From: a virus
Taxonomy: Duplodnaviria > Caudoviricetes
Strand: one strand, 5' to 3'
IMG/VR virus record: IMGVR_UViG_3300037408_000299
Location: 1-39,755 of that record
DNA length: 39,755 nucleotides
The notes under the pieces were generated by a model. It was not told the origin of the DNA. It saw only the letters and a program-made list of their open reading frames with translations, and searched no databases. The position numbers and the translations under genes are program-made. This document shows, in pieces, positions 3,310-35,223 of this stretch. Numbering within the stretch: position 1 is the first letter of the stretch; each line of letters starts with the position of its first letter.

Positions 3310-3807
3310 TCAGAACTCGCTCGTCGGATTGCTGCTGTCCTCGAAGTCGATATATTTGTCAGGCGCGACAATTTCGCCTTCGTTGCCCGCCGTCTCGGCG
3401 GCCCCGAGGTCAATCGTTCCTTCCGCAATCTTGTCGAGCATCTCCATCGCGTCGTCGTACATTTTCTGCCACGACGATGGCACGTCCATCTCGGAGAACC
3501 GCCGTTGCATCGCGTAATAGCAGGCGAGGTCGGTGTTGATGCGCTTGACGACGCCCGGCACCGGAGCGACGAACGGCACGACGAACGCCACGCCGAGTTT
3601 GCTGTTGATGACGTCGTAGCCATGCAGGATGAGCGACGTGACGACGGCAGGGTCGGGCGAAGCCGCCGACGTGATGTCGTTCGTCAGTTGCGTCAGGCGC
3701 TGGCGCGAGATGCGCGACTCAAGGTCGCTCTGCTCGCAGTAGCCGCCAGAGGAAACGCTCGGAGCCGTTGCTCCCGAACTTCCAATTTGTCCGTCGCCGA
3801 GTGCCAT
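3310..3807 (-). CDS. Mu gp36-like (DUF1320-type) head-tail adaptor
   Basis: YCEQSDL...LTQLTND...VPGVVKRINTDLACY...YDDAMEMLDKIAEGTIDLG pattern. Start at 3807 (TGATG overlap). Confidence 0.85.
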   Translation of the reverse strand: MALGDGQIGSSGATAPSVSSGGYCEQSDLESRISRQRLTQLTNDITSAASPDPAVVTSLILHGYDVINSKLGVAFVVPFVAPVPGVVKRINTDLACYYAMQRRFSEMDVPSSWQKMYDDAMEMLDKIAEGTIDLGAAETAGNEGEIVAPDKYIDFEDSSNPTSEF

Positions 3808-4517
3808 CAGTCCACCTGTGTCCCGAACAGAACGATATACGGATAGAGCGTCGTCGTCGTTGACTTGACGATAGTGATGGTTGAAGGCCAGTTCCCGCCC
3901 TGCGTAATCTTCCGCGAGCCGTAGCCGATGATGGGGTAGGATGCGTTCTGCACGGCGAACCAAGTATTCGCCGACGAGTTCGTCGAAAGGTCTGGCGCTC
4001 GAAACTGCTGGACGTACGTTCCGTCATTGTAGGTCGAGAAGGCGACATAGACCAGACCCGGCCCGACCGTTGCGTTCGCTCGAAAGCCAGCACGACTCGC
4101 CGTTCCGTTGCCGGGGAAGGCGGTGAAGAGCGTCGTGTCTTTCAACCGTCGCTGGTTGTCGTAAACGGCGAACGTGTAGCCACGCACCGCCGCACTACCA
4201 GACGCCGTTCCTGTTGCGACGCTCGCCGCTCCGAGTTTCATTTGGTGCGGCAGGTAGAGAGCGCAGATGGTCACGGTATCGTTGAGCGACGAACCGAAGT
4301 TCGACGTCACCAATCCGAGAGCATCGGACGGCACTTGCCTGAAATGATAGACCGCCATCGTGTCCGAGACGAGGTTGTCCGTTCGGACGGTATCGCCTTC
4401 AAGCGTCTGGACGTCAACGGTGCGCGTCGGGTCGGTCGGCGTCAGTTTGCCGTCGCGGAGTCTCCATTGCGCCGACGCGAGCATCGGCAGGAGCAAGAGA
4501 ATCAGGAGTCGTTTCAT
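3807..4517 (-). CDS. Signal-peptide-bearing beta-rich protein in the head module (putative exported virion decoration)
   Basis: MKRLLILLLLPMLASA|QW is a classic Sec/SPI signal. Thr/Ser-rich, with 4 D(S/T)-hydrophobic sequons. Confidence 0.75.
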   Translation of the reverse strand: MKRLLILLLLPMLASAQWRLRDGKLTPTDPTRTVDVQTLEGDTVRTDNLVSDTMAVYHFRQVPSDALGLVTSNFGSSLNDTVTICALYLPHQMKLGAASVATGTASGSAAVRGYTFAVYDNQRRLKDTTLFTAFPGNGTASRAGFRANATVGPGLVYVAFSTYNDGTYVQQFRAPDLSTNSSANTWFAVQNASYPIIGYGSRKITQGGNWPSTITIVKSTTTTLYPYIVLFGTQVD

Positions 4518-5158
4518 GAATAGACCTCGATGCGTACGGTGGCTGTCCAGTCGTCTTGCTCGAACGTATAGAGCGTCACAACGTCGTCGCTCGTTCGTTC
4601 GGCGTGCATGACAATCGGCTGGCCGCTAACGGAATCGCGACCGCTCGCTGTTGCGACAACGTCGCCAGAAGGGAACGCGCCTACAAGCGTCGCAGTATAG
4701 ACGCCAGCGCCGGTGCGAGCCCACACGACTGCGTCGCTCAAGGTAGAACGAACGACGGTCGGTGCCGGTGGATTTGCGCCTGCCTGCGTAAGCGTCGCAA
4801 CGTAGAGGTCCGTCGGTCCTTGTCCAAGTCCGTCGAGGAACGCCTTCGTCACTCCGAGTTCCACGTTGTATTGATGCCCGGAGTCGTCGAAGGCGACGGC
4901 CGCCGTTCCTTCCTGCGCTCGCGTGACGGTGAACTCGTCGGCGGTGCGAGCGGTGACGCGCATGACTTCGGCATGGCCCGCGTGATAGGCCTCGCTCGCC
5001 GATGCGTAATACGTATCCCAGACCACGACATTGAACGCCCCGTCGATGCTCGGGTCGGGGAAGCGAGCGCCTTGACCGCCGACGACGTCGAAGGTCAGGT
5101 CGGCGGCAACGATGCCGTCCGAGAGTTGTCCGACAGCGAAGTTCTTGGTGGCGTCCAT
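4514..5158 (-). CDS. Virion structural / fibre-like protein without signal peptide
   Basis: Contains EVMRVTAR...TVTRAQEGTAA, a motif common in phage virion proteins, and a C-terminal YVATLTQAG...WARTGAGVY beta domain. Confidence 0.65.
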   Translation of the reverse strand: MDATKNFAVGQLSDGIVAADLTFDVVGGQGARFPDPSIDGAFNVVVWDTYYASASEAYHAGHAEVMRVTARTADEFTVTRAQEGTAAVAFDDSGHQYNVELGVTKAFLDGLGQGPTDLYVATLTQAGANPPAPTVVRSTLSDAVVWARTGAGVYTATLVGAFPSGDVVATASGRDSVSGQPIVMHAERTSDDVVTLYTFEQDDWTATVRIEVYS

Positions 5159-5174: not shown

Positions 5175-5202
5175 AAGGCAGGGGGCCGAAGCCCCCTGTC
5201 TT
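5175..5202 (-). terminator. Stable UUCG-loop hairpin (weak terminator or mRNA stabiliser) after the capsid genes
   Basis: AAGACAGGGGGC-UUCG-GCCCCCUGCCUU, with only a poor U-tract. Confidence 0.65.
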
Positions 5203-5219
5203 GTTCATTCGATGCGCTG

Positions 5220-5630
5220 CTACTTGTCGATGCGGACGTAAGCGTACTTGCCCGCCGACTTGAGCCCGGTCGTCTCCGGGCCTCGCCTGAATACGACCAG
5301 TTGGTTCGTCGTCGCCTGATACGCATACGTGACCGTATCGGGCGTCGCATCCCACGTCGGGCAGTATTCGGTGATGACGAACACGTCGCCGACTCCGACC
5401 CCGGTGATGGCGAGCGTGTCGCTTGCAGCCGTCGTGGCGAACGAGTCGATGCCTGCGACACGATTGCCCGTCGCCCAGATGCGAGCGGTGGACGTCAGGT
5501 GCAGGTAAGACTCGATGCCCCACGACTGGACATATGTCGCCGCTGACTGCGTGACGGCCGGGCTCGTGATGAGCCCGACCGCCAGCGTCAACGTCAGAGC
5601 GACGAGGATGATGGAAAGGTTTCGTCGCAT
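5220..5630 (-). CDS. Signal-peptide-bearing small beta protein immediately after the major capsid gene (putative exported decoration protein)
   Basis: MRRNLSIILVALTLTLAVGLITSPAVT|QS; the cleavage site is less certain than for the other four. Contains DTL, DTV and DSF. Confidence 0.7.
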   Translation of the reverse strand: MRRNLSIILVALTLTLAVGLITSPAVTQSAATYVQSWGIESYLHLTSTARIWATGNRVAGIDSFATTAASDTLAITGVGVGDVFVITEYCPTWDATPDTVTYAYQATTNQLVVFRRGPETTGLKSAGKYAYVRIDK

Positions 5631-5639: not shown

Positions 5640-6656
5640 TCACGCGATGCTGTGGATGAGGCCGCCCGCGGCGAAGTCGCCGGTCGAATCCGGCAGGCCG
5701 ACCTTGTGCGTATAGAGCCGCTGCACGTCGAAGACTTCCGACTTGTGCTCGTTGCTCCAATACGACTCGGCCTTCGGGTAGCCGTTCTTCTGAATCTTCA
5801 TGCCGAAGGTGGGTTCCAGCATGCCGTTGCCCGTGTAGGCGATGACGCAGTTGCCCGCCTGCACCGAGCCCCAGATGTCCGTGACGACTCCGGCGGCGTC
5901 CTTCGAGACCATCTCGCCGACCACGACCTTCTTGACCTCCAGAATCGAGGCCGCGATGGCGGTCGTGATGAGTTGCGCGGACGGAGCGCCCGCCGAAGCG
6001 AGATAGGCCGAGGCATACGACCTGACTTTCGCGTTCGTGCGGAACAGCCGCCACGCCTTCGGGTCGAACACGACCGTGTCGCCCTTCCTGCCGCACGCCT
6101 GACGGATGAGGTCCTGCAGCGACAGAATCTGGTCAACCGGGTCGCCCGCTCCGGCCCAGTCGTAGCCCGCGCCGTTCAGGCCACGCGCCGCCGGATAGTT
6201 CGTCGAGGTCGTCGCGAGCGTCGCGGCTTCCTTTTCCTCGATGACGTCCAGCATCGACTGTACCATGGCGGTGCGGATGGTCATGAGCGACTCACGCGTG
6301 ACGCCGAACTCTTCGAGTTCGCGGCGGTCAATCATGAAGCCCAGCGCCCGCTCGTCGAGCGAATACGACGCCGACTTGTTCAGCACGTCCGGGTGCTGCA
6401 CCTTGCCCCGGAGCGCCCGGGTGGCGTCCTGATACGCCCACGCCTCGGTGCCGAAGTACGGGTGTTTCCCGTTCTCCTTGCCGACGGGGAACGTCGGGTA
6501 GAGCATCGGCGAGACCATCTCGCCGTTCTTGTGACCGAGCACGATGCCCATGAGTTCGGGCACGACCTGCAAGGTCGTCAGGACTCCGCTGTCGGCGAAG
6601 TCGATGGTCTGCACCGGCGTCCCGCTACCGGCTTGGAACTGGATAAGTTTCTTCAT
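5640..6656 (-). CDS. Major capsid protein (HK97 fold, lambda gpE-like family)
   Basis: 338 aa from ATG 6656, preceded by an AAGGAA SD. Motifs PTFPV, DWAGAGDPVDQI, IWG and EPTFG; follows the protease and cement genes. Confidence 0.88.
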   Translation of the reverse strand: MKKLIQFQAGSGTPVQTIDFADSGVLTTLQVVPELMGIVLGHKNGEMVSPMLYPTFPVGKENGKHPYFGTEAWAYQDATRALRGKVQHPDVLNKSASYSLDERALGFMIDRRELEEFGVTRESLMTIRTAMVQSMLDVIEEKEAATLATTSTNYPAARGLNGAGYDWAGAGDPVDQILSLQDLIRQACGRKGDTVVFDPKAWRLFRTNAKVRSYASAYLASAGAPSAQLITTAIAASILEVKKVVVGEMVSKDAAGVVTDIWGSVQAGNCVIAYTGNGMLEPTFGMKIQKNGYPKAESYWSNEHKSEVFDVQRLYTHKVGLPDSTGDFAAGGLIHSIA

Positions 6657-6681
6657 GGTGATGGTTCCTTGTCGGGTGTGC

Positions 6682-7074
6682 TCAGGCGACCGTGCCGTTG
6701 AGCGTGGTGAGCAGGACTCGAATCGGGTCGCCGTCCGCCGTCGCTTCGTCCAAAGCGACGCCGCGCAGGATGCCCGCGTTGAGCGTGATGGCCTTGCCGG
6801 CCGCGTTCGACTCGACCTTCGCGAAGCGAGCGACCGCAGCGCCCGCCTGCACGGCGACGACGCCGGAGACGGCCAGCGAGACCTCTTCGTTGTCGGCGCA
6901 GACCAACTGGCCCGGCTCGGCTCCGAAGGTGACACCGGCACTCAGGTCGGCGGTCGAGGCATAGTCCGAGCCGTCCGACTTGATGAACCGACCGGACACG
7001 AGTCCGGCGTTGAGCGTGTTGGTGATTTCCACCGTGTAGCCGATGGAACTCCCAACGGTTTTCGCGTTCGCCAT
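6682..7074 (-). CDS. Capsid cement / decoration protein (DUF2190-like)
   Basis: GVVAVQAGAAV...VESNAAGKA...GVALDEATADGDPIRVLL; lies between the protease and capsid genes. Confidence 0.8.
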   Translation of the reverse strand: MANAKTVGSSIGYTVEITNTLNAGLVSGRFIKSDGSDYASTADLSAGVTFGAEPGQLVCADNEEVSLAVSGVVAVQAGAAVARFAKVESNAAGKAITLNAGILRGVALDEATADGDPIRVLLTTLNGTVA

Positions 7075-7111
7075 GTGACGAACTCCTTGTTGATGTTGAA
7101 GGGTGGATGGA

Positions 7112-8428
7112 TTACTTCAGAAGCGTCTCGTCGAGAGCAATCTCGCCGAGGTTCACTTTCGTCAGGACGACGGCCAACTTCTCCGCGTCCGTGTCGCCCG
7201 CGATGTCCTTCGCGTGCGCCTTGAGGTACGACTGCGCGAACTGCACGCGCTTCATGCCTTCGACCGGGATGAACGTGCCGGGGGAAAGCCCGAGCGCCTT
7301 CGCGGCGTCGGCCATTTCGACCGCGCCGGTGCTGAACTCCGCTTCCTTGCTCGGCTCGGTGGCGACGGGCGCGAAGAGCGTGGTCAGCGAACGGAAGACC
7401 TCGAAGGCCGGGCGCTTGTCGGTCTCGCTGAACTCGACCTGACCCGCGTCGAGCATTTGCGCGGCGAGCCGGAAGACGCCCTGCTCTTCCATCTTGTTGA
7501 CGGGCAGATTCGCCTTGACGCAATCCTCGCGGAACGCGGCGAGCACCTGCTCGTTGTGCTGCTTCTTGGCAGCCGCCTCGGCGGTCGCTTTCGCTTCCGC
7601 TTCCTGCCGCTTCTGTTCCGCGAACTGCGCCTTGTCGCGGTCGAGCGAGGCCTGCTGCTCGGCGAGCGCATCCTGCGCGGCCTTGAGCGCTTTCTCGTCC
7701 ATGGTGTCGGACTCCTTCGTGGTGTTGTGGTTGAGAAGCCGCTCGACCATTTCGGCGGCCTTGTTCTTCATCTTCTCCATGATGCTCTCGGACTTCTCCA
7801 AAAAGGCGAAGTGCAGAGCGGTCGTCGCGGCGATGTCAGCATACGCCGTCGAGAGCGACGTGTTGATACGGTCGCGGCACTTTATCTCGTCGATGTCCGG
7901 GTTCTTGAGCGCGTCCTCAATCTCCGAGAGGCAGGTCGCGAACGACTGCTGAATGCTCTCGAACGTGTCGGCGGTGTTCATCTCCGACGTGACCGCTTCG
8001 ACCTCTTCCATCTCGACGAGCGCTTCGGTGAACGCGATGGACTCCAAGCCCTTCACGGCAGGCGGCGCCGCGCCGAGGAAGGCGACGTGATGCAGATGCC
8101 ACTTGCCCGGAGTCGGGTTCGTCGGGTCGTCCGGCTTGTAGAGGCCGACGCTGACCTTCTTGTAGTGGCCCGTCTTGATGAGGTGCGCGAGTTCTTCGGT
8201 GAACTCCGCAACGACCTTCACCACGCCGCCGACCGTGAAGACCTTTTTGACCCAGCCGAACGCCGGGACTTTCGAGTCCTTATAGTCGCTCGTGTGCCCG
8301 ACCGTCAGCGGGGCCTCATGCACGTTCGCGTCGTAGGACTCGGCGAGTTCCTGCAGTTCCTTCGCCCCGAAAGAGCCCTGCGGATAGACACCGGCCTTGA
8401 AGACTTCGACGATGCGTTGGAGTTTCAT
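7112..8428 (-). CDS. Prohead protease / scaffold (Mu gpI/Z-like)
   Basis: EVFKAG, EAPLTVGH, PAFGWV, YKKVS, LHHVAFLGAAPPAVKGL. The C-terminus is a coiled-coil scaffold with a possible internal start (KESDTMDEK). Confidence 0.88.
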   Translation of the reverse strand: MKLQRIVEVFKAGVYPQGSFGAKELQELAESYDANVHEAPLTVGHTSDYKDSKVPAFGWVKKVFTVGGVVKVVAEFTEELAHLIKTGHYKKVSVGLYKPDDPTNPTPGKWHLHHVAFLGAAPPAVKGLESIAFTEALVEMEEVEAVTSEMNTADTFESIQQSFATCLSEIEDALKNPDIDEIKCRDRINTSLSTAYADIAATTALHFAFLEKSESIMEKMKNKAAEMVERLLNHNTTKESDTMDEKALKAAQDALAEQQASLDRDKAQFAEQKRQEAEAKATAEAAAKKQHNEQVLAAFREDCVKANLPVNKMEEQGVFRLAAQMLDAGQVEFSETDKRPAFEVFRSLTTLFAPVATEPSKEAEFSTGAVEMADAAKALGLSPGTFIPVEGMKRVQFAQSYLKAHAKDIAGDTDAEKLAVVLTKVNLGEIALDETLLK

Positions 8429-8436: not shown

Positions 8437-9630
8437 TCAGTTGGTTTGTAAGATACTTGGGGCATTGACGGGCGACAGGTCGTTACCAGTCGCAGAGCGA
8501 TTCACTCCTTGCCGACTCCAATCCACGTCCAGAACGATGGTGCCATCAGGCCACGACCGGGGCAGCCCTTCTTGTCGCCACGTCCTCGACAAGTGCGCAA
8601 TGCGCCCGTTGATGTTCCGCGGCAGCGCATTGAACCGGATGATTTGCACCGGCCCGACGAACCCTTGCCAATAAAGCCCGCTCGAATTTTCGATGCCAAT
8701 TTGTAGCCGTGTCTGGACGTTCATGGGTGGAAGTTGCTGCCGAGCGTTTGCATAGCCGACAGGCACGCCGTCAATGAAGAGCACCGTCGAGTCGGAGCGG
8801 TTCGCAACGCCCGCGAGGAAATAAGTCTTGCCGGGCTGGAAGCGCATGTTTGCTATGACGCCAACACCAGAGCTACTGTTCTCCGCGAACGAGAACACAA
8901 AGCGCCCGCTCGATGCCGTTCTGAGAGCGTAACCCGATGCCGTCGCCGAGTTCCAACGTCCGACAGAGACCCCGCTCATGGCTGCGTTCGATATCGTGGG
9001 CTTGAGCGCCGCGAGCATCACGATGTCGTACGCCTGCGTACAGGAGATGTCGTCGATATAGAGCGTGTCGCCCAGCGCCGGATTAGTGAACTGCATCCCC
9101 GCCCTGATGTTGGTTTGAGTGCCCGATGACTGCGCGGTAAAGACGATTCGCGTCCATGTGTCGCGGGGAATCGTGACGGTGGTTCCGGTGCCAAAACTTG
9201 CCCCGGTATTCGTGTAGAGCACCAAGCGGGCGTCGCTGCCGGTATTACTCGACGGCGCATATAGCCACATGACGACCGTCCACTTGTAGTTCGTCGTGTT
9301 CGCGAAGCCGGTCGTCGCCCTGAATCGTCCGTTCGTCGTCCCGTCGCTTCTGAGGGCGAACGAGCCGACGCCGGTGCGAACGCGGTCGAGGTTCGTGTTC
9401 CGCGTGAGCGTCAGTCCGAAGTCGGCCTGCCAGCCGGTCGTGTTGGCCTCCGCGCCGGGGTTCGTGATATTCTCCGAGCCCTGCACCGCGATGTTGACCG
9501 GCGATGTCTTGTTCCAGTACTGCGTCGTCCCATCGAGACTCGTCGCTTGATACGACGACGGGCCGAGTGCCGGTACGGGTTGCGCCGCGACGCAATGCAA
9601 GACGACGAGCAGCAGGGCCAGCGTCCTCAT
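8437..9630 (-). CDS. Signal-peptide protein with CBM4/9-like and LamG/ConA-like domains
   Basis: MRTLALLLVVLHCVAA|QP. CBM-like NPGAE...W...LYIDDIS region, then a LamG-like LFIDG...LQIG...WQGFVG region. Confidence 0.75.
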   Translation of the reverse strand: MRTLALLLVVLHCVAAQPVPALGPSSYQATSLDGTTQYWNKTSPVNIAVQGSENITNPGAEANTTGWQADFGLTLTRNTNLDRVRTGVGSFALRSDGTTNGRFRATTGFANTTNYKWTVVMWLYAPSSNTGSDARLVLYTNTGASFGTGTTVTIPRDTWTRIVFTAQSSGTQTNIRAGMQFTNPALGDTLYIDDISCTQAYDIVMLAALKPTISNAAMSGVSVGRWNSATASGYALRTASSGRFVFSFAENSSSGVGVIANMRFQPGKTYFLAGVANRSDSTVLFIDGVPVGYANARQQLPPMNVQTRLQIGIENSSGLYWQGFVGPVQIIRFNALPRNINGRIAHLSRTWRQEGLPRSWPDGTIVLDVDWSRQGVNRSATGNDLSPVNAPSILQTN

Positions 9631-10187
9631 TGGTAGTAACCCCCTAACTCGAAGCGGTATCGCTCGCCCGCTTTCGGCGTCCATACTGCGGCGGCCTCGA
9701 TAACGCCGTAGATGTTTCGGCTCCCGGTCGGGAGTGAGAACGGAATCCCCGCCCCGGTCGTGATGCCGTAACCAGCAGAGGCCGCTACGGAATTGTATGT
9801 ACTCACGACCAGCGAGCCGATGCGCCGGGAGAAGTTCCACGGAGACACAACGTTCGGTTCGTTGTCGCCGAGGCGTTGAATGCCGGTGCTGTCCTCGTAG
9901 AGATGAACGATGAACGAGCGAACGGCCGCCGAGTCGCTGATGGCTCGTAGCGACTGGACGAAACCAAAGGCCGCCGTCTTCGCCGGTTGACCGTTCGGTG
10001 CTTTGAGCGAGAACACGAGCACCTTTCGCGGCGAGGTCGTGCTATCGTTCACGATGTCGCCGAGCGTGTAGGTCGTCACCGTATCGGGGCGCGCGACCGA
10101 GTCAGCAGCCGAGAAGACCCACCATTGAGCGTCAGCGGTCGTCAGCACCGCCAGCATCAGCGTCGCCAGCATCGTCAATCGTTTCAT
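9627..10187 (-). CDS. Signal-peptide-bearing jelly-roll-like protein (putative exported virion protein)
   Basis: MKRLTMLATLMLAVLTTADA|QW. 5 of 7 mature Asp residues sit in D(S/T)(A/T/V) sequons. The 5' end overlaps the portal 3' end. Confidence 0.75.
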   Translation of the reverse strand: MKRLTMLATLMLAVLTTADAQWWVFSAADSVARPDTVTTYTLGDIVNDSTTSPRKVLVFSLKAPNGQPAKTAAFGFVQSLRAISDSAAVRSFIVHLYEDSTGIQRLGDNEPNVVSPWNFSRRIGSLVVSTYNSVAASAGYGITTGAGIPFSLPTGSRNIYGVIEAAAVWTPKAGERYRFELGGYYQ

Positions 10188-11562
10188 CGTCGTCATCCTT
10201 CGTAATGAGTTGTCCATTCTCGTCCACCGTCTGGCCGGGCATGAGTTGTTTCGGCATCGGTTCCTCTTCGTCGAGAGGAATCTGCATCGTCTTCTCGACG
10301 TACTCTCGCGTCGCCTTGTAGCCCGCATTCCTGAGCGTGGCGATGGCCTGCGCCGTCCGAACAATATCGACCGAGTCTTCGGTCACGAACTCGAACGACG
10401 GGTAGCGCTGCAGGTTGTAGAAATTCAGGTCGCAGAACCAGCGAAGGAGCGTATGCGAGAGCGTATCGGCGAGCGACTTCGCATCGTAGAGCACGATGTC
10501 ACCACGCACCGAGTTGTGCACCGCTCCGAGCGCTCGCGAGCCGGAACCATTCGAGCCGCTGCCTTCGGTCGTGAGCGTCTGTCCGAGCACCGCCTTCGCA
10601 ATCTGCTCGTCGGCCCACCGGATGAACTTCTCGTAGGTGTCGGCGGTCGTCGCAACGTTCTTCGACTCTGCCCAGAGGATGTCCCAGTCGGCGGGGATGT
10701 AGCCGTAAGCGCTCGAACGAATCTGCTCCGCGACGGCGAGCGCCTCGGTCTTCACCGCTTGCAAACTCTTCGCCGGAATCTTCACGAGCGGCACCGGAGC
10801 CGACGAAGACTGCGCGTGATTCATCCAGAACTTTGTCACAGTCCGCTTGAAGAGCCAGAGCCAGTAGAGTCGCTGGTCGAGCGCATCACCAAACGGGTTC
10901 TCGTAGCGCTGCGAGTTCCGGTGCACGATGAACTTCTGCGGGCCGACCGGGTCGCCGTAGAATGCGTTGTCGAGTTTCCGAACCTTGAGCCACCTTGTCG
11001 TCGCATCGAACTGGAAGCGGCGCTGCTGCCGGTTGAGGATTTCGTTCGGCACGACGTAGCCGTCTCGGTCAACGCCCCAGATGACTTCCGACACGGCGAA
11101 GCCCTTGCCGAGAGCGTCGAGCAGTTCGACGAGGTCTTGGAAGAGCCCCGGCACTTGCAACAGTTTCTCGGTTGCGACTTCGGCGACGCGCATGTCTCGC
11201 GGCTTGTCGCTCGCGGGCTTGATGCGCCACTGCAGACCGGCGACCGCGAGTTTCCTCGTCATGAGCACCGCGCTCACTTGAGGGTCGAGTTCGACTTGGT
11301 CGTAGAGGTCGTAGCCAGCGAAGTCGAGGTAGGTCTGCCGTTGGAGAATCGTGTCCGGGTTCAGATAGACGCCGGACGACGGAGCAGGATAGGGCAGCGC
11401 ATTCCCGACGTACATGCGAACGAGGTCGGTGAGGACGCTCGCTTCCTCGTTCGACAGGTATGAGCCGCGTGGCACCGGCTTCGGTCGGAAATTTAGGTTG
11501 TCTTTGAGTCGTGCTCGTGGCATAGGTTTCAAACGGAAACGGGCGAGCGACCTTTCGGCCAC
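10132..11562 (-). CDS. Portal protein, Mu gp29 / DUF935 family
   Basis: DPQVSAVLMTRKLAV, LLDALGKGFAVSEVIW, NPFG, IAKAVLGQTLTT, GSRALGAVHNSVR. The start could instead be ATG 11523. Confidence 0.93.
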   Translation of the reverse strand: MAERSLARFRLKPMPRARLKDNLNFRPKPVPRGSYLSNEEASVLTDLVRMYVGNALPYPAPSSGVYLNPDTILQRQTYLDFAGYDLYDQVELDPQVSAVLMTRKLAVAGLQWRIKPASDKPRDMRVAEVATEKLLQVPGLFQDLVELLDALGKGFAVSEVIWGVDRDGYVVPNEILNRQQRRFQFDATTRWLKVRKLDNAFYGDPVGPQKFIVHRNSQRYENPFGDALDQRLYWLWLFKRTVTKFWMNHAQSSSAPVPLVKIPAKSLQAVKTEALAVAEQIRSSAYGYIPADWDILWAESKNVATTADTYEKFIRWADEQIAKAVLGQTLTTEGSGSNGSGSRALGAVHNSVRGDIVLYDAKSLADTLSHTLLRWFCDLNFYNLQRYPSFEFVTEDSVDIVRTAQAIATLRNAGYKATREYVEKTMQIPLDEEEPMPKQLMPGQTVDENGQLITKDDDDETIDDAGDADAGGADDR

Positions 11563-11647: not shown

Positions 11648-11868
11648 TAGCCCCGGGTGACTTTCTGCGCGTCGGTCTGGATGAAGCGGAGTTCCTGCGG
11701 GTCGTCGGTGAACGAGACCTCAAGGTTCACGACGGCCCCTTTTTGCATCACAACGGTCAAACGCCCATATCCACGGGCCGAAATTTCACGGAAGCGCTCC
11801 ACGAGCCGGGTCTCGATGGGCGAGAGCGGAGTGGCGACAACGGTCACGGTCAGGCGGTCAGTAGCCAT
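11644..11868 (-). CDS. Small DUF2292/YezD-like protein
   Basis: GYGRLTVVMQKGAVVNLE motif, 74 aa, between terL and portal. Confidence 0.6.
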   Translation of the reverse strand: MATDRLTVTVVATPLSPIETRLVERFREISARGYGRLTVVMQKGAVVNLEVSFTDDPQELRFIQTDAQKVTRGY

Positions 11869-13294
11869 GCGTTACCGCTTTCACTTCGCTCCGTCCAGTT
11901 CCCATGTCTTTGCTCTGCCCTTCGGTGAATGTGCCCGGCGTCCAATGGCGGTTGATGGCTTGCACGAATACATCATTAAGGTCGGACTCGAATCCGTTGC
12001 CCGCCTTCAAGATACCTTGCTTCGGGTCGTCGAGCAGAAAGTCGAGCAGATGCGCCTTGATGAAGACCTTGCCGGCCTCGACCGGCGGCGTCGCGAGTCG
12101 AGTGCGTGCTATCTTGTCGCCGCCTTGGACCTCGACCTCTTGCGCGTAGATGCCTTGACGCTTGAGCGACTGGACCGCCGACTTGCCCGATGCTTTCGCC
12201 TCGACATAGTGCGCGGCCTTCTGCGAGTGCATCCATTCGACGAGTTCGGGAAACTCAAGATAACGCACGCCGAGGTCGGTGACGAAGATGTTACCGAGCG
12301 CGTCTCGACACGACCGAATGAACGCCGAGCCGCTGTTCGCGTCGTCCTTCGTGTAGGCAAGGTCCCAATCGCAGCCGTCATCGACGCCGTCGGTGTCCGT
12401 CGTGAACGAACGGAACCACTCGCGCTTCCAGATGTTGCCCTCTTCGATGGTCGGTCGCTGCTGATAGAGAGCCGCCCAATGACGAGAGCCCGAGATGCCG
12501 CGCTGACGGTCGAGTGCGTCGAGGTCGTAGCGTTCGGGGCAGAGCGCTTCGCCCGTCGCTCGCCAGTCAGGTTCGACAGAACAGGTGACAGGAAAAACGT
12601 GGGCCGCTTCAGCGACAGCAGGCAGGCAGATAATATGCCAGCCCTGCCGCATCTCTTCGTCCGAGGAGAGCAGCCAGCCCGAGAGGTCATCGACGTGCCA
12701 TCGCGTCTGGATGATGACCTCGGCCGCGTTCGGTTCTCGACGCGTTGACCACGTCGAGCGATACCATTCCCGATGCGCAGCCCGGACGATTTCGCTCTCG
12801 GCCTCTTCTGCGTTCTTGAGTGGGTCGTCAATGACGCCAAGATGAAAGCCCTTTCCGGTGATGGGACCGCCGACGCCCGCCGCCCACATGCCGCCGCCTT
12901 CGAGCGTTCGCCATTCGCGGGCGGCAGAGACGTCTTGATTGACCGGAGCGACGCGGGTGTATCGCTCCATCGCTGCGCGACTCAGACCATGCGCAAGGTC
13001 GGCAGCATACGACGCGAGCCCGACCGTGCGCGTCGGGAACTTGTAAACGTAGTAGGGCGTGAAGAGCCGAGAGACCTCTTCGGACTTGCCGTGCCGCGGT
13101 GGCTCGAAGACCATGAGCCGCTTGAGTTCTCCACGCGCCACGCGGTCGAGCGCATCGCCGAGCGCCTCGCAATGCCGATACCAGATGAACGACGGCTCGA
13201 CCTCTTCGACGAACGCCCGGAAGTTGACCGTGATGCGTTCTCGATATTCTGCTTCAATGAGTGCACGAGCATGGGCTTCGCTGGCGTCGGCCAT
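11858..13294 (-). CDS. terL: Terminase large subunit
   Basis: Walker A PPRHGKS, GVGGPITGKG, Walker B GVIDDPLK, QTRWH, ALYQQRP, RNase H-like DWDLA and DLNDVFVQ. Confidence 0.96.
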   Translation of the reverse strand: MADASEAHARALIEAEYRERITVNFRAFVEEVEPSFIWYRHCEALGDALDRVARGELKRLMVFEPPRHGKSEEVSRLFTPYYVYKFPTRTVGLASYAADLAHGLSRAAMERYTRVAPVNQDVSAAREWRTLEGGGMWAAGVGGPITGKGFHLGVIDDPLKNAEEAESEIVRAAHREWYRSTWSTRREPNAAEVIIQTRWHVDDLSGWLLSSDEEMRQGWHIICLPAVAEAAHVFPVTCSVEPDWRATGEALCPERYDLDALDRQRGISGSRHWAALYQQRPTIEEGNIWKREWFRSFTTDTDGVDDGCDWDLAYTKDDANSGSAFIRSCRDALGNIFVTDLGVRYLEFPELVEWMHSQKAAHYVEAKASGKSAVQSLKRQGIYAQEVEVQGGDKIARTRLATPPVEAGKVFIKAHLLDFLLDDPKQGILKAGNGFESDLNDVFVQAINRHWTPGTFTEGQSKDMGTGRSEVKAVTHGY

Positions 13295-26410: not shown

Positions 26411-26448
26411 AGGATGGCTCCTTGGTGGTGGTGGTGATGGTCTTCTCT

Positions 26449-27933
26449 TTATGATTCCATGCGCCGTGCGGTCGCTTGAAACGTCGGCTCGCTCTCGTGC
26501 TTGTAAAGACCGGGAGCGGCCGCATTGATGAACTTCTGCGACGCCTCACGAGAGAGGCGCTCAATCTGTTCCTTCGCGCTGACGCTGACCGGGACGATGT
26601 AGGTCGCCGCCTCGTTCAACTTGACGCGAAGCCGATGCGCGATGGTGCAGCAGTTCCGAATCTCAGCACCCGTCCAACCTTCGTCATTCGGCATCTCGGT
26701 CGCTGTTGGCTTGAGGCCGAACCTCTTGAAGTAGATGCGCCAGATGTTCTTGCGGTCGTCGGCACTCGGCAACGGAAAGAAGAACGTGCCGAACGAGAAC
26801 CGTCGCCGCAATTCCGGCGGTAGGATGCTGATGCTGTTACAGGTCGCGATGAAGAGCGTCTGCCCTTGCGAGACGGCATCGACGACTTGGAGCGCAGTGC
26901 GAAGCCGCTGCTCCGATTCGCCGACGAGCGAGCCCTTCATCCCGCCGAGGTCGAGCGCGATGGTCGGTATGCCGGCCTCGTTGCCCGTTGCTTTCGCGAT
27001 GGCTGACTTGCCGGAACCGGGAGGGCCAATGAGAATGACGCCCGATGCCTCTTTGTCTTGCATGAACGTCAGCAGCGTTCGCAGATAGTCTTGCGAGACG
27101 CCCGACGAATCGGTCCCGCTCGCGGCCATGCTCTTCTCGATTTCGTCGATGAAGACGATAGCACGCGGCGGTTGCTCGCCATTGCAGACGGCCTTGAGGA
27201 ACTTCTTTGCGTTCGAGTAGCCGCCGACATCCTCGAACGTCTCGCCGCCACGCCAGACCGACAGGCCCGGCGTCTGCTCAATCATGCGGCGCTTCCGTTC
27301 CCACAATCCGTCGTGGTCGAGCCCCTCTTTCGAGACGGACATTGCGAGCACTTGCTCCGCGCCGAACGCCGACAGACCGAGCAACGTGTCGTGGACCTTC
27401 TTGCGGTCGCCGATGGCCTTCGACGTCAGCCCCGCATCCTTCGTGATGCTCTCGATGATGCCGTCCACTTCTTCGGACGTCGGGAGCGTATCGGTCAGCG
27501 TCACGACGTCATTCTTGAGCACCGCCGGAGCATTGACGCCGACTGGAACCAATGCGAGCAGCGTCGAGCCGGTCGTCTTGAAGAGGTCGCGCAGATTCCA
27601 GATGGCCTGCACGACGGGCTCCATGTTCCAGAACAGGTGCAGATTGTGGCAGAAGATGACCGCCCGCTCCGGCCACTTCTTCCCGTAGAACGACGTGAGG
27701 AAGTCGGTCGCGTTCAGCGTGTCGAGCGAAGAATCAAAAAGCGCCTCGATGGTCTGCTTGCCGACCTCGTTCACGCCCTGAGCGCCGCGTGCGACGTCCC
27801 ATTGCACGAGCGCGAACTTCTCCGCGCCGCCGTTCATGTCCTTGATGACGTTCTGGATGGTCTGCGTTGCGTCGCTCGTCTCAACGATGACGAGCGGGAC
27901 GCCTGCGCGACGTACTGGTCGAATACTAATCAT
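26449..27933 (-). CDS. Ycf46-like AAA+ ATPase with Walker B segment preceding Walker A
   Basis: Order in the protein is DVGG, IVFIDEIEK (Walker B), GPPGSGKS (Walker A), SLVGESE, IATCN, LPPELRRRF, GWTGAEI. Confidence 0.9.
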   Translation of the reverse strand: MISIRPVRRAGVPLVIVETSDATQTIQNVIKDMNGGAEKFALVQWDVARGAQGVNEVGKQTIEALFDSSLDTLNATDFLTSFYGKKWPERAVIFCHNLHLFWNMEPVVQAIWNLRDLFKTTGSTLLALVPVGVNAPAVLKNDVVTLTDTLPTSEEVDGIIESITKDAGLTSKAIGDRKKVHDTLLGLSAFGAEQVLAMSVSKEGLDHDGLWERKRRMIEQTPGLSVWRGGETFEDVGGYSNAKKFLKAVCNGEQPPRAIVFIDEIEKSMAASGTDSSGVSQDYLRTLLTFMQDKEASGVILIGPPGSGKSAIAKATGNEAGIPTIALDLGGMKGSLVGESEQRLRTALQVVDAVSQGQTLFIATCNSISILPPELRRRFSFGTFFFPLPSADDRKNIWRIYFKRFGLKPTATEMPNDEGWTGAEIRNCCTIAHRLRVKLNEAATYIVPVSVSAKEQIERLSREASQKFINAAAPGLYKHESEPTFQATARRMES

Positions 27934-30361: not shown

Positions 30362-31318
30362 TCAGAGCGTCGAGCCGATACCGATGCGGAGACCGCTCGA
30401 TGGCCCGAAGGCGTAGTGCGCCGAGAGGTAGGCGTCGCGCACGAACGGAATGACGTGGGAGAGATTCGCCCGCACGCCGACGACGACGTGCAGACATTCG
30501 AGGTCGGCAGCGATACCGACCGATGGGAAGCGAGCGACGATATTCTGCAGAGCCGGGCCGCCCGTTGAATACGAGAACGGCGTCAGGACGAGCGCCGCCT
30601 CGCGGCTGTCGCCGAGGAACAACTTGTCGAGCGAGACGGCCCAGTCGTTCCAGAGCCAGCGGCGGCGGTCCTCTTCAGGAGCGATGACCGCGACGCGCTC
30701 CTTGCGATAGTCAGGCAACGACATGGTCTTCGATGCGTCACGCAGCGAGCGCAATCGGACCTGATAGACGTCGAAGAGTTTGCCGTCCTTGTCGAGCAGC
30801 GTCGTCGTGATATCCTCGACGCCCATCTTCATCTCGTAGGACAGATTGTAGATGCGGAACACGGTGTCGGGTTCGACGATGGCCGTGAGCCATTCATCCT
30901 CATACCATCCGTCGATGTTCGTCTCGCCTTCGTCTGCGATGACGACCGTGCCTTTGCCGGAGATGACCGAGACGACGCGAGCATGGCGCTCGGTCAGCGA
31001 GTCGATAACGCGCCAATAAGCGGCGTCGCGCTCGGCGTCGGCACGTTTCACCGAATCGACGAAGCGAGCAAAGTCGGTTGCCTCGGCAAGATAGAGCGCC
31101 TGCATTTGATTGATGCCGTCATGCAGTTGCCGGAACTCTCGCGAGTAGTCGCGTTCGCGAAGCGCGGGACGATACTCGGCCGGCGTCACGAACCACGCCA
31201 CGCCGAGCGTCGCAAGAACGGCGATGACCTTCGGAACGATGCCGATGCGAAAGACCTCTGCGACGACACGTGCGAGAATACCGAACAGCCACACGCCGAA
31301 CTTCTTAAGCGTCTTCAT
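30362..31318 (-). CDS. Putative spanin-like protein (N-terminal TM, coiled coil, C-terminal amphipathic beta strands)
   Basis: Last gene after the endolysin. TM VIAVLATLGVAWFV; C-terminus YLSAHYAF...GLRIGIGSTL; no lipobox seen. Confidence 0.5.
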   Translation of the reverse strand: MKTLKKFGVWLFGILARVVAEVFRIGIVPKVIAVLATLGVAWFVTPAEYRPALRERDYSREFRQLHDGINQMQALYLAEATDFARFVDSVKRADAERDAAYWRVIDSLTERHARVVSVISGKGTVVIADEGETNIDGWYEDEWLTAIVEPDTVFRIYNLSYEMKMGVEDITTTLLDKDGKLFDVYQVRLRSLRDASKTMSLPDYRKERVAVIAPEEDRRRWLWNDWAVSLDKLFLGDSREAALVLTPFSYSTGGPALQNIVARFPSVGIAADLECLHVVVGVRANLSHVIPFVRDAYLSAHYAFGPSSGLRIGIGSTL

Positions 31319-31881
31319 GTCGTCGCCTTGCAGTCGATGTGGATGCAGTTATTCTTTCGCTCGACGAGGAAGCCGACCATGCCCGGCGGCTTCGCAATAT
31401 CCACGACGGCATTGATGACCGCGAGTTCATTCGAGACGTCGTGGTCGGGACCGCCGCCGATGTCGAAGCACGTGCCGTTGAAATGCGCCGACGGCGGGAT
31501 GATGCGGCCCTTCTTGTTGACACCGTCCTTCCAGTAATCGAACAGCACTTCTGCGCGGAGCGGCGGGTTGATGATAACGCCGCGATTCAGGAGCGCCGAC
31601 CAGACGGGCTGCCACGCATAGACCTGACGACCTTGGAAGTCGATGGCTGCCTCGACGTCCGGCTTCATCATGTCGGGATAGTCTCTCGCCAGTCCGAACC
31701 GAACGGCATAGTGCCGAATGATGCTGAGTTGCTGCTCGGCCGTTCTGAGCCCCGACGTGACGACGGCCGGATTCGACTCGAACCATGTGTCGAGCGCGTG
31801 GATGACCGGGTCGATAACGTCCGTCAGAACGACGCCCGCATTGACGGTCAAGAAGCGGTTGCTATCGGAGAGCCACGTCAT
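31315..31881 (-). CDS. Endolysin, peptidase M15-like
   Basis: VTSGLRT, SAHFNGTCFDI (SxHxxGxxxD) and CIHID Zn-ligand motifs; ATG 31881. Confidence 0.8.
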   Translation of the reverse strand: MTWLSDSNRFLTVNAGVVLTDVIDPVIHALDTWFESNPAVVTSGLRTAEQQLSIIRHYAVRFGLARDYPDMMKPDVEAAIDFQGRQVYAWQPVWSALLNRGVIINPPLRAEVLFDYWKDGVNKKGRIIPPSAHFNGTCFDIGGGPDHDVSNELAVINAVVDIAKPPGMVGFLVERKNNCIHIDCKATT

Positions 31882-31883
31882 GA

Positions 31884-32285
31884 CTAGACTCCCGCGTCGG
31901 CCTTCGCCTTCGCCGCTAGTTTCGCGGTCGCGACGAATCGGTCGAACACCCACGCTGCACCCATTGACTGAGCGGCCGAGGTTCCTATCCAATCAATCCA
32001 GCCCGAAGGTCCGGCGTGCATTCGACTCCCGCCCTCGATGACGGACGAAATGAGGCCGTAGTCCCACGCCCAACATGCGAACAGACCGACGAGGAACGAG
32101 ATGAATCGGATGGTCGGGCCGTCGAGCGCCTGTCCTTTGAAGAGCGAGAAGAGCAGGTTGCGCACGAGCGTCGTGATACCGACGAACGAGAAGTCTTTGT
32201 AGACCTCGACGATGGCCGAGATGAAGATGATGAATACGCCGAACTTGACGAGCGCGGCGAAGAGTGGACCCATAATGCCTTCCAT
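31884..32285 (-). CDS. Putative holin (multi-TM)
   Basis: About three hydrophobic segments and a basic C-terminus; adjacent to the endolysin. Confidence 0.6.
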   Translation of the reverse strand: MEGIMGPLFAALVKFGVFIIFISAIVEVYKDFSFVGITTLVRNLLFSLFKGQALDGPTIRFISFLVGLFACWAWDYGLISSVIEGGSRMHAGPSGWIDWIGTSAAQSMGAAWVFDRFVATAKLAAKAKADAGV

Positions 32286-32293
32286 GACGGCTC

Positions 32294-32662
32294 CTATCGT
32301 TTGCGACGACGACGCGGCGGGATGTGAATGTCCCGTCCTGATACGCGAATGTCGTCGCGGGTGATTTGACGCTCCATCGCGAGCGAGAGATTGTGGCTGA
32401 CCTTCTCGAGCCGCTCCCGGCTCTCGCGGAATCCCTCGATGTTCGTATTCTTGATTTCGACGAGGTGCTCGTTCATCTGCCGCGTCTGTTCGGCGATGAC
32501 GGCCAGCGACGCCGCGATGCCCTTCGCCGAGCCGTTCAGGTCTGACGGTCGCACCGGAACGACGCGCTCGATGATGCGGAGCGTCAGATAGAGAATGCCG
32601 CCCGTCGGGATGCTGGCAGCCATGATTTGCACCCACAACGGGGCATCGGTGAGGAACTCCAT
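32294..32662 (-). CDS. Single-TM coiled-coil lysis-region protein
   Basis: N-terminal hydrophobic segment, coiled coil and RRRRKR tail. Confidence 0.55.
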   Translation of the reverse strand: MEFLTDAPLWVQIMAASIPTGGILYLTLRIIERVVPVRPSDLNGSAKGIAASLAVIAEQTRQMNEHLVEIKNTNIEGFRESRERLEKVSHNLSLAMERQITRDDIRVSGRDIHIPPRRRRKR

Positions 32663-32666
32663 CGCG

Positions 32667-33065
32667 TCACCTGAACAGTTTCTGAATGAACGCCAGCAAC
32701 CATGCGTTGAGTTGCTTCCACTCTTCCCATTGCGCCCGCAGTTCAACGAGCGGGCGCTTCATGACCAAAAAGTGATACGTGACGGCCTTCGTCGGCAATG
32801 CGACGGCAAAGAACCAGACGAGCGACCAATCGAGAGCCCCGCGTCCGGCGACGTAAGCAGACGCCATGACGACGAGGTCCGCATTGTGCCAGAAGTCGAG
32901 CGGGAACGGGCCGAGATATTTCTCCGTGTCGCTCCATGCCCGGTAGAACCGATTGCGCTCATACCACAACTCGACGCCGTCCTCTTGCGAGAGAGCGCCC
33001 CACAGGTCGCGGTCGCGAAGCGCCTTGAACATTCCGGCGAGAAACGAAAAGAGGACGACCGTCAT
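32667..33065 (-). CDS. Membrane protein
   Basis: Hydrophobic segments and a DFWH motif; in the lysis region. Confidence 0.6.
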   Translation of the reverse strand: MTVVLFSFLAGMFKALRDRDLWGALSQEDGVELWYERNRFYRAWSDTEKYLGPFPLDFWHNADLVVMASAYVAGRGALDWSLVWFFAVALPTKAVTYHFLVMKRPLVELRAQWEEWKQLNAWLLAFIQKLFR

Positions 33066-33415
33066 GGTCGCACCTCGCGGGGTTCGCTGGAACTTGCCTG
33101 ATGCTGGAGCATGAACGAGTAAACCTCGCTTGCTTTCGTCACGGCGTCACGGATGAACCAGCCGCCGAGCAGCGACAGGATGACAAGGCCGCCGACGATG
33201 GAGCCGCGCCAGACTTCCAGACGGCGCACGCGCCCATTCTGCTCGTTCAAACGGTTCACGACGTTCTCGACCGCGGTGCGCGTCGCCGCGATGTTCGTGT
33301 TCATGAGTTCCAGCGTCGGCGGTTGCGCCGCCGTAAAGCCCCGGACTTCCAGCGCCAGAGCGTTTACTTGTCTGGTGAGTTCGTCGAATTGCGTCTTGGC
33401 GGTTTCTCGCATCAC
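33062..33415 (-). CDS. Coiled-coil protein with C-terminal TM (lysis region)
   Basis: QNGRVRRLE.W followed by TM GSIVGGLVILSLLGGWFI. Confidence 0.65.
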   Translation of the reverse strand: MMRETAKTQFDELTRQVNALALEVRGFTAAQPPTLELMNTNIAATRTAVENVVNRLNEQNGRVRRLEVWRGSIVGGLVILSLLGGWFIRDAVTKASEVYSFMLQHQASSSEPREVRP

Positions 33416-35223
33416 TGCCTCGTCGTGGTATAGCCCTGCAGGAGCCGGACGTAGTTCGCCCCGGCGTCGCTAATCTGAACCGTGACGGTGAGGTCGTTCG
33501 TCGTCGTCGTATTGATGGCGACGTTGCTCGCGTAGGCGTCAATGGAGCCGGACTCTGTATCGAACTCCGAGAATATCTCCATTTGCCCGGATGTCCCGAT
33601 GTTTCGGAAGGTCAGCACCGTTTCAGAGTGCCACGGACGGAGCGCTGTCCCGCTGCTTGTGATGACATTCGTAAGCAGGGTCGTCGCTCCTTTCTTGATG
33701 CGGAACGTGAGCGTCTTGGACGCTCCGGCAGCGATGGAATAGTCGCCGTGGAGCATGATGGTCACGACCTTGCCGACCGACGGATAGTTCGCTCCCATGT
33801 TCGCCGTGTAGAGCGTCGTCTCGGCGGTCGAGTTCGTATCGACCACGTTCGCCATCACGACGTTGTGCGTCATGTCGAAGTAGCGATTGACAATATACTG
33901 CCAGCCGCCGAACGCTCGCTGCGTCGAGTCCCAATATATGGTACCGGGCTGGATGTCCGTCTCCTTTACGCCCTTGAGCCGAATCTGCTGGACGAGCATG
34001 GAGTCGATGTTAACGTAAGGCCGCTGCTCCCACCGTTGCGTCGTCGCGTTCCATGCGAGAGGCCCGCCGTTGGTGGACGGCTGAGTCGTATCGACATTCG
34101 CAATCTGCTCAAGGTCGAGATGCCTGTCAGGATGAACAAACAGGATGCCGTTGCTCGCGTTCTGATAGACGACCGTCGCTACGAAGTTCTGATGGTGCGG
34201 AGCGTTCGGCACCGTATCGGTCAATGCGCCCGGCGTCCACTTCGAGGCATAGAGTTTTGTTCCCTCTGTCCATGCGTTCGTATTCAGGCCGCGCACGTGG
34301 CCCCATGTCGTCACGAAGCCGGTCGCGTTGTCGTCGATGTCTTCCGTCGTGACGCCGATGACGCTCGCCGTCGCCTCTGCGTTTCCTCGGGTGAGAGCAA
34401 TCGTCGGTCGCTGTCCCTGCGCCCCGTTGACATAGACGACGCTTCCTTCGGGAATGTCCGAGCCCGTCTTGTTCGTGCTTCGCAAATATTCCTCTTGCCC
34501 GACTTGGAGCGTGACCGCTGTGCCGGATGGGACAAGGTCAACGGTCTTGTCGGTATTGTTGAATGTCAGCGTTGCCGTGTTCTCGGTCGGCGTGTTGCCG
34601 TCACCGATGACAACGCGGCCCGGAACGGCTGGCGTGCCGACGCGCATCGAGTCCCGAACGAGCAGAGCGCCGAGAATTCTCATGTAGCCATAGACGTCGG
34701 CAGAGTCGAGGATGACGAACGCCCCGGCTCGGTTCGAGGCGGTGTCGCCATAGAAGCGACCCTCGACGTCCATGTCCTGCTTAAAGAAGTTGTGGACGTT
34801 CAGCGTTGCAATCGTATCGGTTCCGCTCAGGATGGGAATGATGAGCGTGCGGCTCGCGGGCCACGCTGTCGTCGGCGGTCGCATGTCGTACGTTTCCGTC
34901 GAGGCACTTTGGTACCAACGGACAAGCCCGTTGCCGACGCCGGGGTCGCCGACGCGCACCTGCTGACCGAACTGTCCGGAGCCGTCTATGTCAAGCAGAG
35001 AACCGTCGCCGAATCCGACCCAGCCGATAGTCGAAGACACTTTGACCACTTGGAAGAGACCGTTCGCCGCGACGAGATAGCGAACGAACGCCGAGTCGAA
35101 GCGCCGGTTGTACGTTCCGAGTTTCCGGGTGAAGTCGCCGTCCGGGATGAGCGAGCCACGAACCGGGATGTCCTGCGCCACCAGAGGCGCGAAGAGCAGA
35201 AGTAGAGCGAGAAGTTTCTTCAT
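33412..35223 (-). CDS. Signal-peptide-bearing tail-fibre / receptor-binding-like protein (603 aa)
   Basis: MKKLLALLLLFAPLVA|QD. Beta-repeat stalk and a cement-like domain (NKTGSDIPEGSVVY...GFVTTWG.V...TEG..LY); last tail gene; 9 D(S/T)-hydrophobic sequons. Confidence 0.75.
   Translation of the reverse strand: MKKLLALLLLFAPLVAQDIPVRGSLIPDGDFTRKLGTYNRRFDSAFVRYLVAANGLFQVVKVSSTIGWVGFGDGSLLDIDGSGQFGQQVRVGDPGVGNGLVRWYQSASTETYDMRPPTTAWPASRTLIIPILSGTDTIATLNVHNFFKQDMDVEGRFYGDTASNRAGAFVILDSADVYGYMRILGALLVRDSMRVGTPAVPGRVVIGDGNTPTENTATLTFNNTDKTVDLVPSGTAVTLQVGQEEYLRSTNKTGSDIPEGSVVYVNGAQGQRPTIALTRGNAEATASVIGVTTEDIDDNATGFVTTWGHVRGLNTNAWTEGTKLYASKWTPGALTDTVPNAPHHQNFVATVVYQNASNGILFVHPDRHLDLEQIANVDTTQPSTNGGPLAWNATTQRWEQRPYVNIDSMLVQQIRLKGVKETDIQPGTIYWDSTQRAFGGWQYIVNRYFDMTHNVVMANVVDTNSTAETTLYTANMGANYPSVGKVVTIMLHGDYSIAAGASKTLTFRIKKGATTLLTNVITSSGTALRPWHSETVLTFRNIGTSGQMEIFSEFDTESGSIDAYASNVAINTTTTNDLTVTVQISDAGANYVRLLQGYTTTRQ

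Follow-up and report, generated by a model that had tools for sequence, protein, structure and literature searches.

Five virion-module proteins with Sec-type leaders and excess O-glycosylation sequons as candidate exported decorations and fibre of a tailed phage

The window (the whole stretch of DNA analysed, 39,755 nucleotides; positions 1 to 39,755 of IMG/VR record IMGVR_UViG_3300037408_000299; Duplodnaviria, Caudoviricetes) belongs to a tailed phage in which five proteins, encoded among the head, neck and tail genes, each begin with a Sec-type leader followed by Gln and together contain an excess of the Bacteroidota O-glycosylation sequon. With a probability of roughly 0.6, these five are exported, pyroglutamate-capped, host-glycosylated decorations and a fibre that would dock on particles at lysis. 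They are likely outer virion parts, namely capsid cement or decoration, a neck or collar appendage, and a tail fibre. The sequon excess, absent from the initial annotation of this DNA, is the strongest clue to the reason for export. Tailed virions are held to be built wholly in the cytoplasm. The five proteins are:

3807..4517, minus strand: pre-gp36 protein, 236 aa; leader 1-16, Gln17; 4 sequons
5220..5630, minus strand: post-capsid protein, 136 aa; leader 1-27 (weakest), Gln28; 2 sequons; without a PHROG or Pfam match
8437..9630, minus strand: LamG-domain protein, 397 aa; leader 1-16, Gln17; 2 sequons
9627..10187, minus strand: post-portal protein, 186 aa; leader 1-20, Gln21; 5 sequons; predicted jelly roll
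33412..35223, minus strand: tail-fibre-slot protein, 603 aa; leader 1-16, Gln17; 9 sequons

Leaders, Gln at +1 and sequons

The five open reading frames, with the N-termini given to them by the initial annotation, are present at these coordinates, on a minus strand that it had left unstated. By our own rule, each has a basic n-region, a hydrophobic h-region, small residues at -3 and -1, and Gln at +1, the weakest case being 5220–5630 (27-residue leader, Thr at -1). Of 59 curated genes, seven satisfied a leader rule with no term for Gln (K/R in residues 2–7, no D/E in residues 3–14, Kyte-Doolittle 8-mer of at least 2.3). Besides the five, these were a spanin-like gene (30362–31318) and an AAA ATPase, the last a false positive, so that two of the 54 genes outside the five passed. 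Small-x-small-Gln occurred at positions 14–33 in 11.5% of random 40-mers from other genes, a background at which five out of five would be expected by chance at ~2e-5. The leader rule and the motif test agree on a Sec-type leader and then Gln for all five, as had been proposed, and on these sequence features Sec export with signal peptidase I (SPI) cleavage before Gln is very probable.

Among the start codons within the first 45 codons of each of the five genes, a Shine-Dalgarno (SD)-like motif was found at codon 1 only and thus there is no sign of leaderless isoforms; isoforms of this kind from internal starts were rejected, as no internal start was SD-backed. The mature chains have no lipobox Cys, no further transmembrane stretch and no match to a type IX secretion system (T9SS) sorting domain (Pfam and NCBIfam, E 0.01; divergent domains could escape). 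They contain 0 or 1 Cys, which makes disulfide formation unlikely as the reason for export, and disulfide-driven export was rejected. Four of the five genes overlap the upstream gene (three by ATGA, 9627–10187 by 56 nt) and 5220–5630 starts 9 nt after the capsid gene, bearing out the earlier description of co-oriented, mostly translationally coupled genes; their head and tail operon slots are supported by PHROG and Pfam.

The Bacteroidota sequon, D-[S/T]-[A/L/V/I/M/T], is described in the available text of PMC12871550 as used on non-cytoplasmic proteins only, with Glu seldom substituting. There were 22 sequons in the five proteins vs 6.6 expected (0 of 20,000 shuffles), and 27 vs 29.2 in the other 54 proteins; counts for the reversed motif and the Glu version were 5 and 3. 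The fibre-slot protein, 9627–10187 and 3807–4517 were each singly significant. The spanin-like protein has an N-terminal hydrophobic segment and 3 sequons. From this computed excess, a glycan added by the general O-glycosylation system of the host at D-[S/T]-hydrophobic sites is predicted with good confidence.

Related phages and homologous families

The sole homolog of 8437–9630 led to a phage (L002) that has a different head and encodes leader-plus-Gln homologs of 9627–10187, 8437–9630 and 3807–4517, a further leader protein whose gene comes after that of the capsid, and a leader-bearing fibre-slot protein. The leader proteins of L002 contain 17 sequons vs 5.15 expected and its other proteins 14 vs 14.4. 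More related phages were found by searches with the tail hub. Across seven distinct relatives, all 23 virion-module leader proteins have Gln (23/23) and contain 168 sequons vs 53.4 expected, compared to 85 vs 83.6 in 68 leaderless virion-module proteins. These pooled counts exclude duplicates (L004, L006, L009, L010, L012, L013, L016), fragments (L017–L020), L003 (unrelated, no leaders), and leader matches in the lysis region or on the opposite strand, and they include an L014 leader that was missed by the leader rule and assigned by eye. One pooled protein (L008:18221) was read a few codons beyond its stop, with the same 13 sequons as in a separate count.

The fibre-slot gene is leader-bearing in all seven relatives that reach the fibre slot. 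The heads of the relatives fall into four capsid types (Mu-like, HK97-like, SU10-like and Phage_capsid_4-like), and thus the design survives head exchange. Head-slot content differs among relatives. The post-capsid region is visible in six, of which four encode a leader protein no more than three genes from the capsid gene; in the other two, this place is taken by a leaderless protein (L011) or by nothing (L015). The post-capsid slot is filled by leaderless proteins in both L011 and G003. An unrelated podovirus-like contig (L039) encodes four leader-plus-Gln virion-module proteins, one of them directly after the capsid gene. The earlier expectation of leader retention in phages of this host group does not hold generally: in two Flavobacterium phages, none of 13 proteins examined near the fibre genes begins with a leader. 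Several arrangements were observed among the relatives in passing: G003 (L007/L023) apparently has two sets of tail-tube and neck genes, with fibres preceding the second set; in L015 an opposite-strand gene separates a second fibre (11745–13898) from the first; and G002 has a leader-plus-Gln gene upstream of terminase, outside the virion module (L021:5124–5573, minus strand).

The family of 9627–10187 comprises 2038 cluster representatives, of which the best 150 were used for leader and sequon counts. Among these, 48 were leader-like, with Gln at +1 in 45 of the 48 under a rule blind to Gln, and sequons numbered 152 vs 33.9 expected in the 45 leader-plus-Gln members and 159 vs 112.2 in 102 leaderless members. 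In an alignment of 115 of the best 150 matches (longer fusions excluded), sequons were distributed by leader state at column 79 (36/43 leader forms vs 3/72 leaderless), column 65 (26/43 vs 5/72) and column 99 (9/43 vs 0/72), while a D-T-x sequon beside an invariant RP had the opposite distribution (0/43 vs 29/72). In IMG/VR, 113 distinct homologs were found in 147 of 160 loci, only two of them clear leader forms. The upstream neighbours of viral homologs (47 scanned of 68 listed, some near-copies) were packaging, head, connector or tail genes in 30 of 47 cases, 10 of them major capsid, the remainder being one endolysin, two unknown and 14 without a match. Leaderless homologs adjoin capsid, portal and tail genes of other phages, and the homologs are phage structural-module proteins. 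A leader is absent from four homologs that GenBank lists for non-Bacteroidota viruses. In an archaeal virus (L035; BK063675, vir556) a gene of this family lies two genes after the double-jelly-roll capsid gene.

The structure of 9627–10187 was predicted as a single jelly roll (predicted local distance difference test [pLDDT] 95.8). All Foldseek matches in the PDB had template modelling (TM) scores <0.5, the best named matches in BFVD were phage proteins (TM 0.69–0.78), and VIA-align returned small chains of phage capsids (Z 6.8, 8H89; 6.6, 7EEL; 5.7, 7DOU) tied with plant-virus capsids. The 155-residue chain in 8H89 is the cement protein gp1 according to the available text of PMC9698820. Cement chains thus matched the predicted jelly roll at Z 5.7–6.8, none at Z 8 or above; on this model, 9627–10187 is likely cement- or decoration-like.

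The fibre-slot protein is encoded between tail-tip and lysis genes. Its central domain (~residues 210–400) is common to 37 proteins, of which four look leader-bearing, and occurs in 15 phage records, the majority with a tail or fibre annotation; a leader was found in 0 of 4 relatives checked in cultured phages. Acinetobacter phage phiAC-1 encodes the domain after its capsid gene. A short motif after the Gln is common to five of eight aligned fibre-slot proteins (identity 14–28%). A single-sequence model of the fibre reached pLDDT 30, and PDB sequence searches with alignments A2 and A7 or with the fibre core returned nothing useful. In L014 the fibre-slot protein (5973–7781) has 33 sequons in 603 residues vs 4 expected, recurring along a repetitive, probably helical stalk.

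Virion-type domains had been ascribed to the five as a set. The LamG domain of 8437–9630 is present, the CBM_4_9 (carbohydrate-binding module) match sits instead in leaderless 35951–36760, and the cement-like match in the fibre is present but below the Pfam cut-off (20.9 vs 24 bits). The CBM-like half of 8437–9630 is supported through relatives only, and the protein is likely a glycan-binding head appendage. In one relative (L008:1794–3671) the gene that comes next after the capsid encodes a leader-bearing LamG homolog with a fused polysaccharide deacetylase domain. Two homologs of 3807–4517 begin, directly after the leader, with a weak match to Mtd_N, the N-terminal domain of a known phage fibre; the L005 homolog had no match among cultured phages. 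The leaderless protein beside it, 4514–5158, has a counterpart in L011 that also adjoins a 3807 homolog, and is a candidate cytoplasmic docking adaptor. For 5220–5630, no alignment was obtained to the L005 post-capsid protein (E 0.18).

RNA contigs, from runs that were found with this same stretch and without strand information, cover the capsid gene and 5220–5630 in four of four runs, and 9627–10187, 8437–9630 and the fibre in two; among the contigs listed, none covers 3807–4517. Contigs at the capsid/5220 junction reach <31 bases into it and so do not bridge it. Three contigs end at 5210–5216, beside a hairpin (z -2.6), a weak hint that 5220–5630 closes the capsid transcript.

Virion attachment, alternatives and a possible assembly route

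The earlier proposal that exported decorations and a fibre dock at lysis can be divided into its parts: export is well supported; slot conservation, phage structural homologs, the cement-like fold and Cellulophaga phage phi18:3 (NC_021794, Pachyviridae) argue for virion parts; and docking is what we infer from these. Of 12 phi18:3 proteins annotated from tandem mass spectrometry (MS/MS) in two stretches, gp085–gp087 have a leader and Gln and are annotated as structural, and the other nine have none. Virion-protein export thus has an experimental footing in one phage, through the phi18:3 annotation, is not universal in the phylum, and does not require a glycan.

Several observations weigh against exported, glycosylated virion parts. 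The D-S/T motif was noticed by eye before testing, for which reason replicates were sought in relatives, and 8437–9630 (p 0.38) and 5220–5630 (p 0.11) are not singly enriched. The profile used in the family search for 9627–10187 itself included leaders and two sequon columns; with these columns set aside, sequons per sequence were 0.60 in leader and 0.38 in leaderless forms, and the leader forms cluster on a quick tree (9 changes, 3 forced). No VIA-align match to its fold was found at Z 8 or above, and the Mtd_N-like matches of the 3807 homologs are below cut-off. Sequon excess also occurs in leaderless proteins, including the Pseudomonas phage Rollin fibre (11 vs 5.9), Caulobacter phage Quill gp047 (4 vs 0.8) and the second fibre of L015, with no apparent leader (7 vs 2.0). 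Conversely, sequons are scarce in phi18:3 gp085–gp087 (3 vs 9.5) and show no excess in the four leader-bearing distant fibre homologs (22 vs 20.1), indicating that export is not always tied to glycosylation. Since any protein in the periplasm is tagged by host O-glycosylation, the sequons are a sign of export and not of attachment to the virion. Two scans of GTDB, one with the portal and one with the hub alignment, found no prophage or host.

The first alternative, which is unlikely, accepts that the proteins are exported and glycosylated but has them retained by the cell, as envelope effectors made late from what were fibre and cement domains (receptor block, superinfection exclusion, lysis aid or released decoys). 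Leaders, Gln and sequons indicate export alone, one cement protein and one fibre-like protein without leaders are already present in the phage, and in L011 and L015 the capsid gene is not directly followed by one for a leader protein. The available text of PMC10367356 also treats Q-rule proteins (Gln at +1 of SPI substrates) of Porphyromonas phages as possible outer-membrane modifiers. Such effectors fit poorly with a window that has no other long fibre gene and a fibre slot that is leader-bearing throughout the relatives, with structural slots kept across head swaps, and with the MS/MS annotation of the phi18:3 counterparts as structural; nor do the mature chains have a lipobox, transmembrane helix or T9SS-domain match by which the envelope would retain them.

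Somewhat less probable is a mixed case, in which the fibre is an exported virion part and at least some of the four proteins in head and neck slots are secreted but dispensable and never bind the capsid. Against the variable head-slot content of relatives, which suits this case, stand the cement-like family of 9627–10187, which adjoins capsid genes in leaderless phages, and the occupation of the post-capsid slot by leaderless proteins in L011 and G003. Its best candidate is 5220–5630, with no family match and the weakest leader, though RNA contigs on that gene together with the capsid gene in all four runs argue weakly the other way; a fold model is available for the 9627–10187 protein only. 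That the N-termini are hydrophobic assembly peptides or membrane anchors of virions assembled in the usual cytoplasmic manner is very improbable: the leader rule does give false positives, as with the AAA ATPase, but a rule blind to Gln recovered Gln at +1 in nearly all leader-like homologs, and sequon gain and loss are linked to the leader, the sequon being used only outside the cytoplasm in the available text of PMC12871550.

For exported decorations and a fibre, the following route can be proposed. The five would be expressed late with the head and tail genes (the gene order is observed, and expression only hinted at), exported by Sec and cleaved by SPI before Gln, which a host glutaminyl cyclase would cyclise to pyroglutamate, as suggested by the Q-rule literature. 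Periplasmic O-glycosylation by the general host system at D-[S/T]-hydrophobic sites would follow. Lacking any lipobox, transmembrane helix or T9SS domain, the mature chains would remain in solution there. When the inner membrane is opened by the holin, periplasmic parts would meet DNA-filled particles and bind as late-adding cement and fibres. T4 Soc and Hoc, lambda gpD and the P22 tailspike are precedents for such late addition to finished particles, which makes docking after holin opening plausible, and by this analogy docking on finished particles is probable. The purpose is likely a host-made glycan coat on the particle surface, serving in camouflage, protease resistance or altered adsorption.

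More broadly, there is an even chance that this represents a widespread second assembly compartment, in which cement and fibres pass through Sec, acquire a pyroglutamate cap and the O-glycan of the last host, and are added at lysis, with a leader switch gained or lost more than once in one cement family and sequons redistributed to match. If fibres and capsid decorations do mature in the periplasm, particle completion would be tied to lysis, the glycan acquired from the last host could affect host range and stability, the host genes for glutaminyl cyclase and O-glycosylation would count as loci of phage resistance, and pipelines that exclude a structural role on the basis of a signal peptide would err for such phages.

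Genome context and comparison with known systems

The 39.6-kb tailed-phage record has genes running on the minus strand and direct terminal repeats of 127 bases, with a CheckV completeness of 38%. PHROG and Pfam matches to terminase, Mu-type portal, protease, leaderless cement protein, capsid, gp36, gp37, neck and tape measure point to a long-tailed phage. DNA runs containing at least half of the head region (n = 3) were all wetland metagenomes, a habitat call that left out runs with a small share. Other features are:

3310..3807, minus strand: Mu gp36-like head-tail adaptor (PHROG/Pfam)
4514..5158, minus strand: leaderless tail-fibre N-terminal-like protein
5181..5197, minus strand: GC hairpin after 5220–5630; possible end of the capsid transcript
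5640..6656, minus strand: major capsid protein (Mu-like)
6682..7074, minus strand: leaderless cement protein (Phage_cement_2)
7112..8428, minus strand: head maturation protease/scaffold
10132..11475, minus strand: Mu-type portal (PHROG/Pfam)
30362..33412, minus strand: likely lysis region with small membrane proteins, likely endolysin and spanin-like protein (labels inferred from position; no family match)
35220..39627, minus strand: leaderless tail genes that define the lineage, comprising a hub with immunoglobulin domain, likely tail tube, and CBM-bearing and plain Dit-like proteins (labels inferred)

The tape measure gene (2–1783 / 39627) crosses the terminal repeat, with a stop that overlaps the start of the hub gene. 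Immediately upstream of the portal, a near-consensus sigma-70 promoter (11/12, extended -10) is followed ~50 nt later by a 13-pair terminator hairpin (11647–11540, minus strand), an arrangement that we take to resemble the lambda pR'-tR' late antitermination switch. A block with an AAA ATPase, DUF1257, DUF2997 and two small genes (25232–27933, minus strand) is conserved in G004 at 32–63% identity. Ahead of terminase, a ParB-like gene and a TET-associated glycosyltransferase (13780–15281, minus strand) likely serve DNA modification rather than protein glycosylation. The head genes are Mu-like, yet no transposase or integrase match was found among 46 proteins scanned.

IMG/VR scans with the capsid and with the 3807 alignment found only a copy of this genome and L002, the P0059 scan gave no match, and the homolog lists gave no host names for the phage lineage. 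The window contains SD motifs and a TTGACA-17-TATATT promoter, both presumably unlike Bacteroidia, from which we infer a host of Ignavibacteria type. Though the initial annotation took the Gln rule as a trait of the whole Fibrobacteres–Chlorobi–Bacteroidetes group, in the available text of PMC5837995 it holds in Bacteroidetes and Ignavibacterium album (77%) and fails in most Chlorobi.

The proposed system shares elements with several known ones. The Sec-dependent phage proteins include signal-arrest-release (SAR) or secreted endolysins, spanins, Lom/Bor and filamentous phage coats. These also use host Sec, and serve lysis, the envelope or membrane-assembled non-tailed phages rather than as parts of tailed particles. 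In mycobacteriophages, capsid and tail-tube subunits are reportedly modified by phage-encoded cytoplasmic enzymes. Mycobacteriophage virions are glycosylated (Freeman 2023, as cited in PMC12619734), and elsewhere a tail protein is methylated by a host enzyme that progeny infectivity requires (PMC13445384); virion surface proteins are thus modified post-translationally as proposed here, but the available accounts of these phages describe no export step. In size and predicted beta-sandwich fold (Z <8), 9627–10187 resembles Ralstonia phage GP4 gp1 (8H89), the cyanophage Pam1 small chain (7EEL) and the KHP40 cement protein (7DOU), but GP4 gp1 has no cleaved leader, its chain being traced from Ala2. 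Bacteroidota O-glycosylation and the Q-rule (available texts of PMC12871550 and PMC5837995) involve the same sequon and +1 Gln on non-cytoplasmic proteins, and are known for host proteins; the word 'phage' does not occur in the main text of the review (PMC12871550).

Closer to the window are phages of Porphyromonas gingivalis, which encode Q-rule proteins with SPI leaders (PMC10367356; cited in PMC10653852, available text). The genes are alike in leader and Q-rule, but those proteins are of unknown function and are read in the available text of PMC10367356 as possible outer-membrane modifiers, not as virion parts, and the word 'glycosylation' is absent from both main texts. A literature search (mostly open papers, main texts) found no paper on exported tailed-virion parts. 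The closest counterparts are phi18:3 gp085–gp087, which share the leader and Gln, are structural or tail proteins by MS/MS annotation, and adjoin lysis genes; unlike the window phage, phi18:3 is a podovirus, with these genes in a single block instead of spread over head, neck and tail slots, few sequons and an annotation silent on export. Relative to all of these, what is new here is the sequon excess, the occupation of head, neck and tail slots in one phage, the persistence across head swaps, and a cement-like family found in both leader states.

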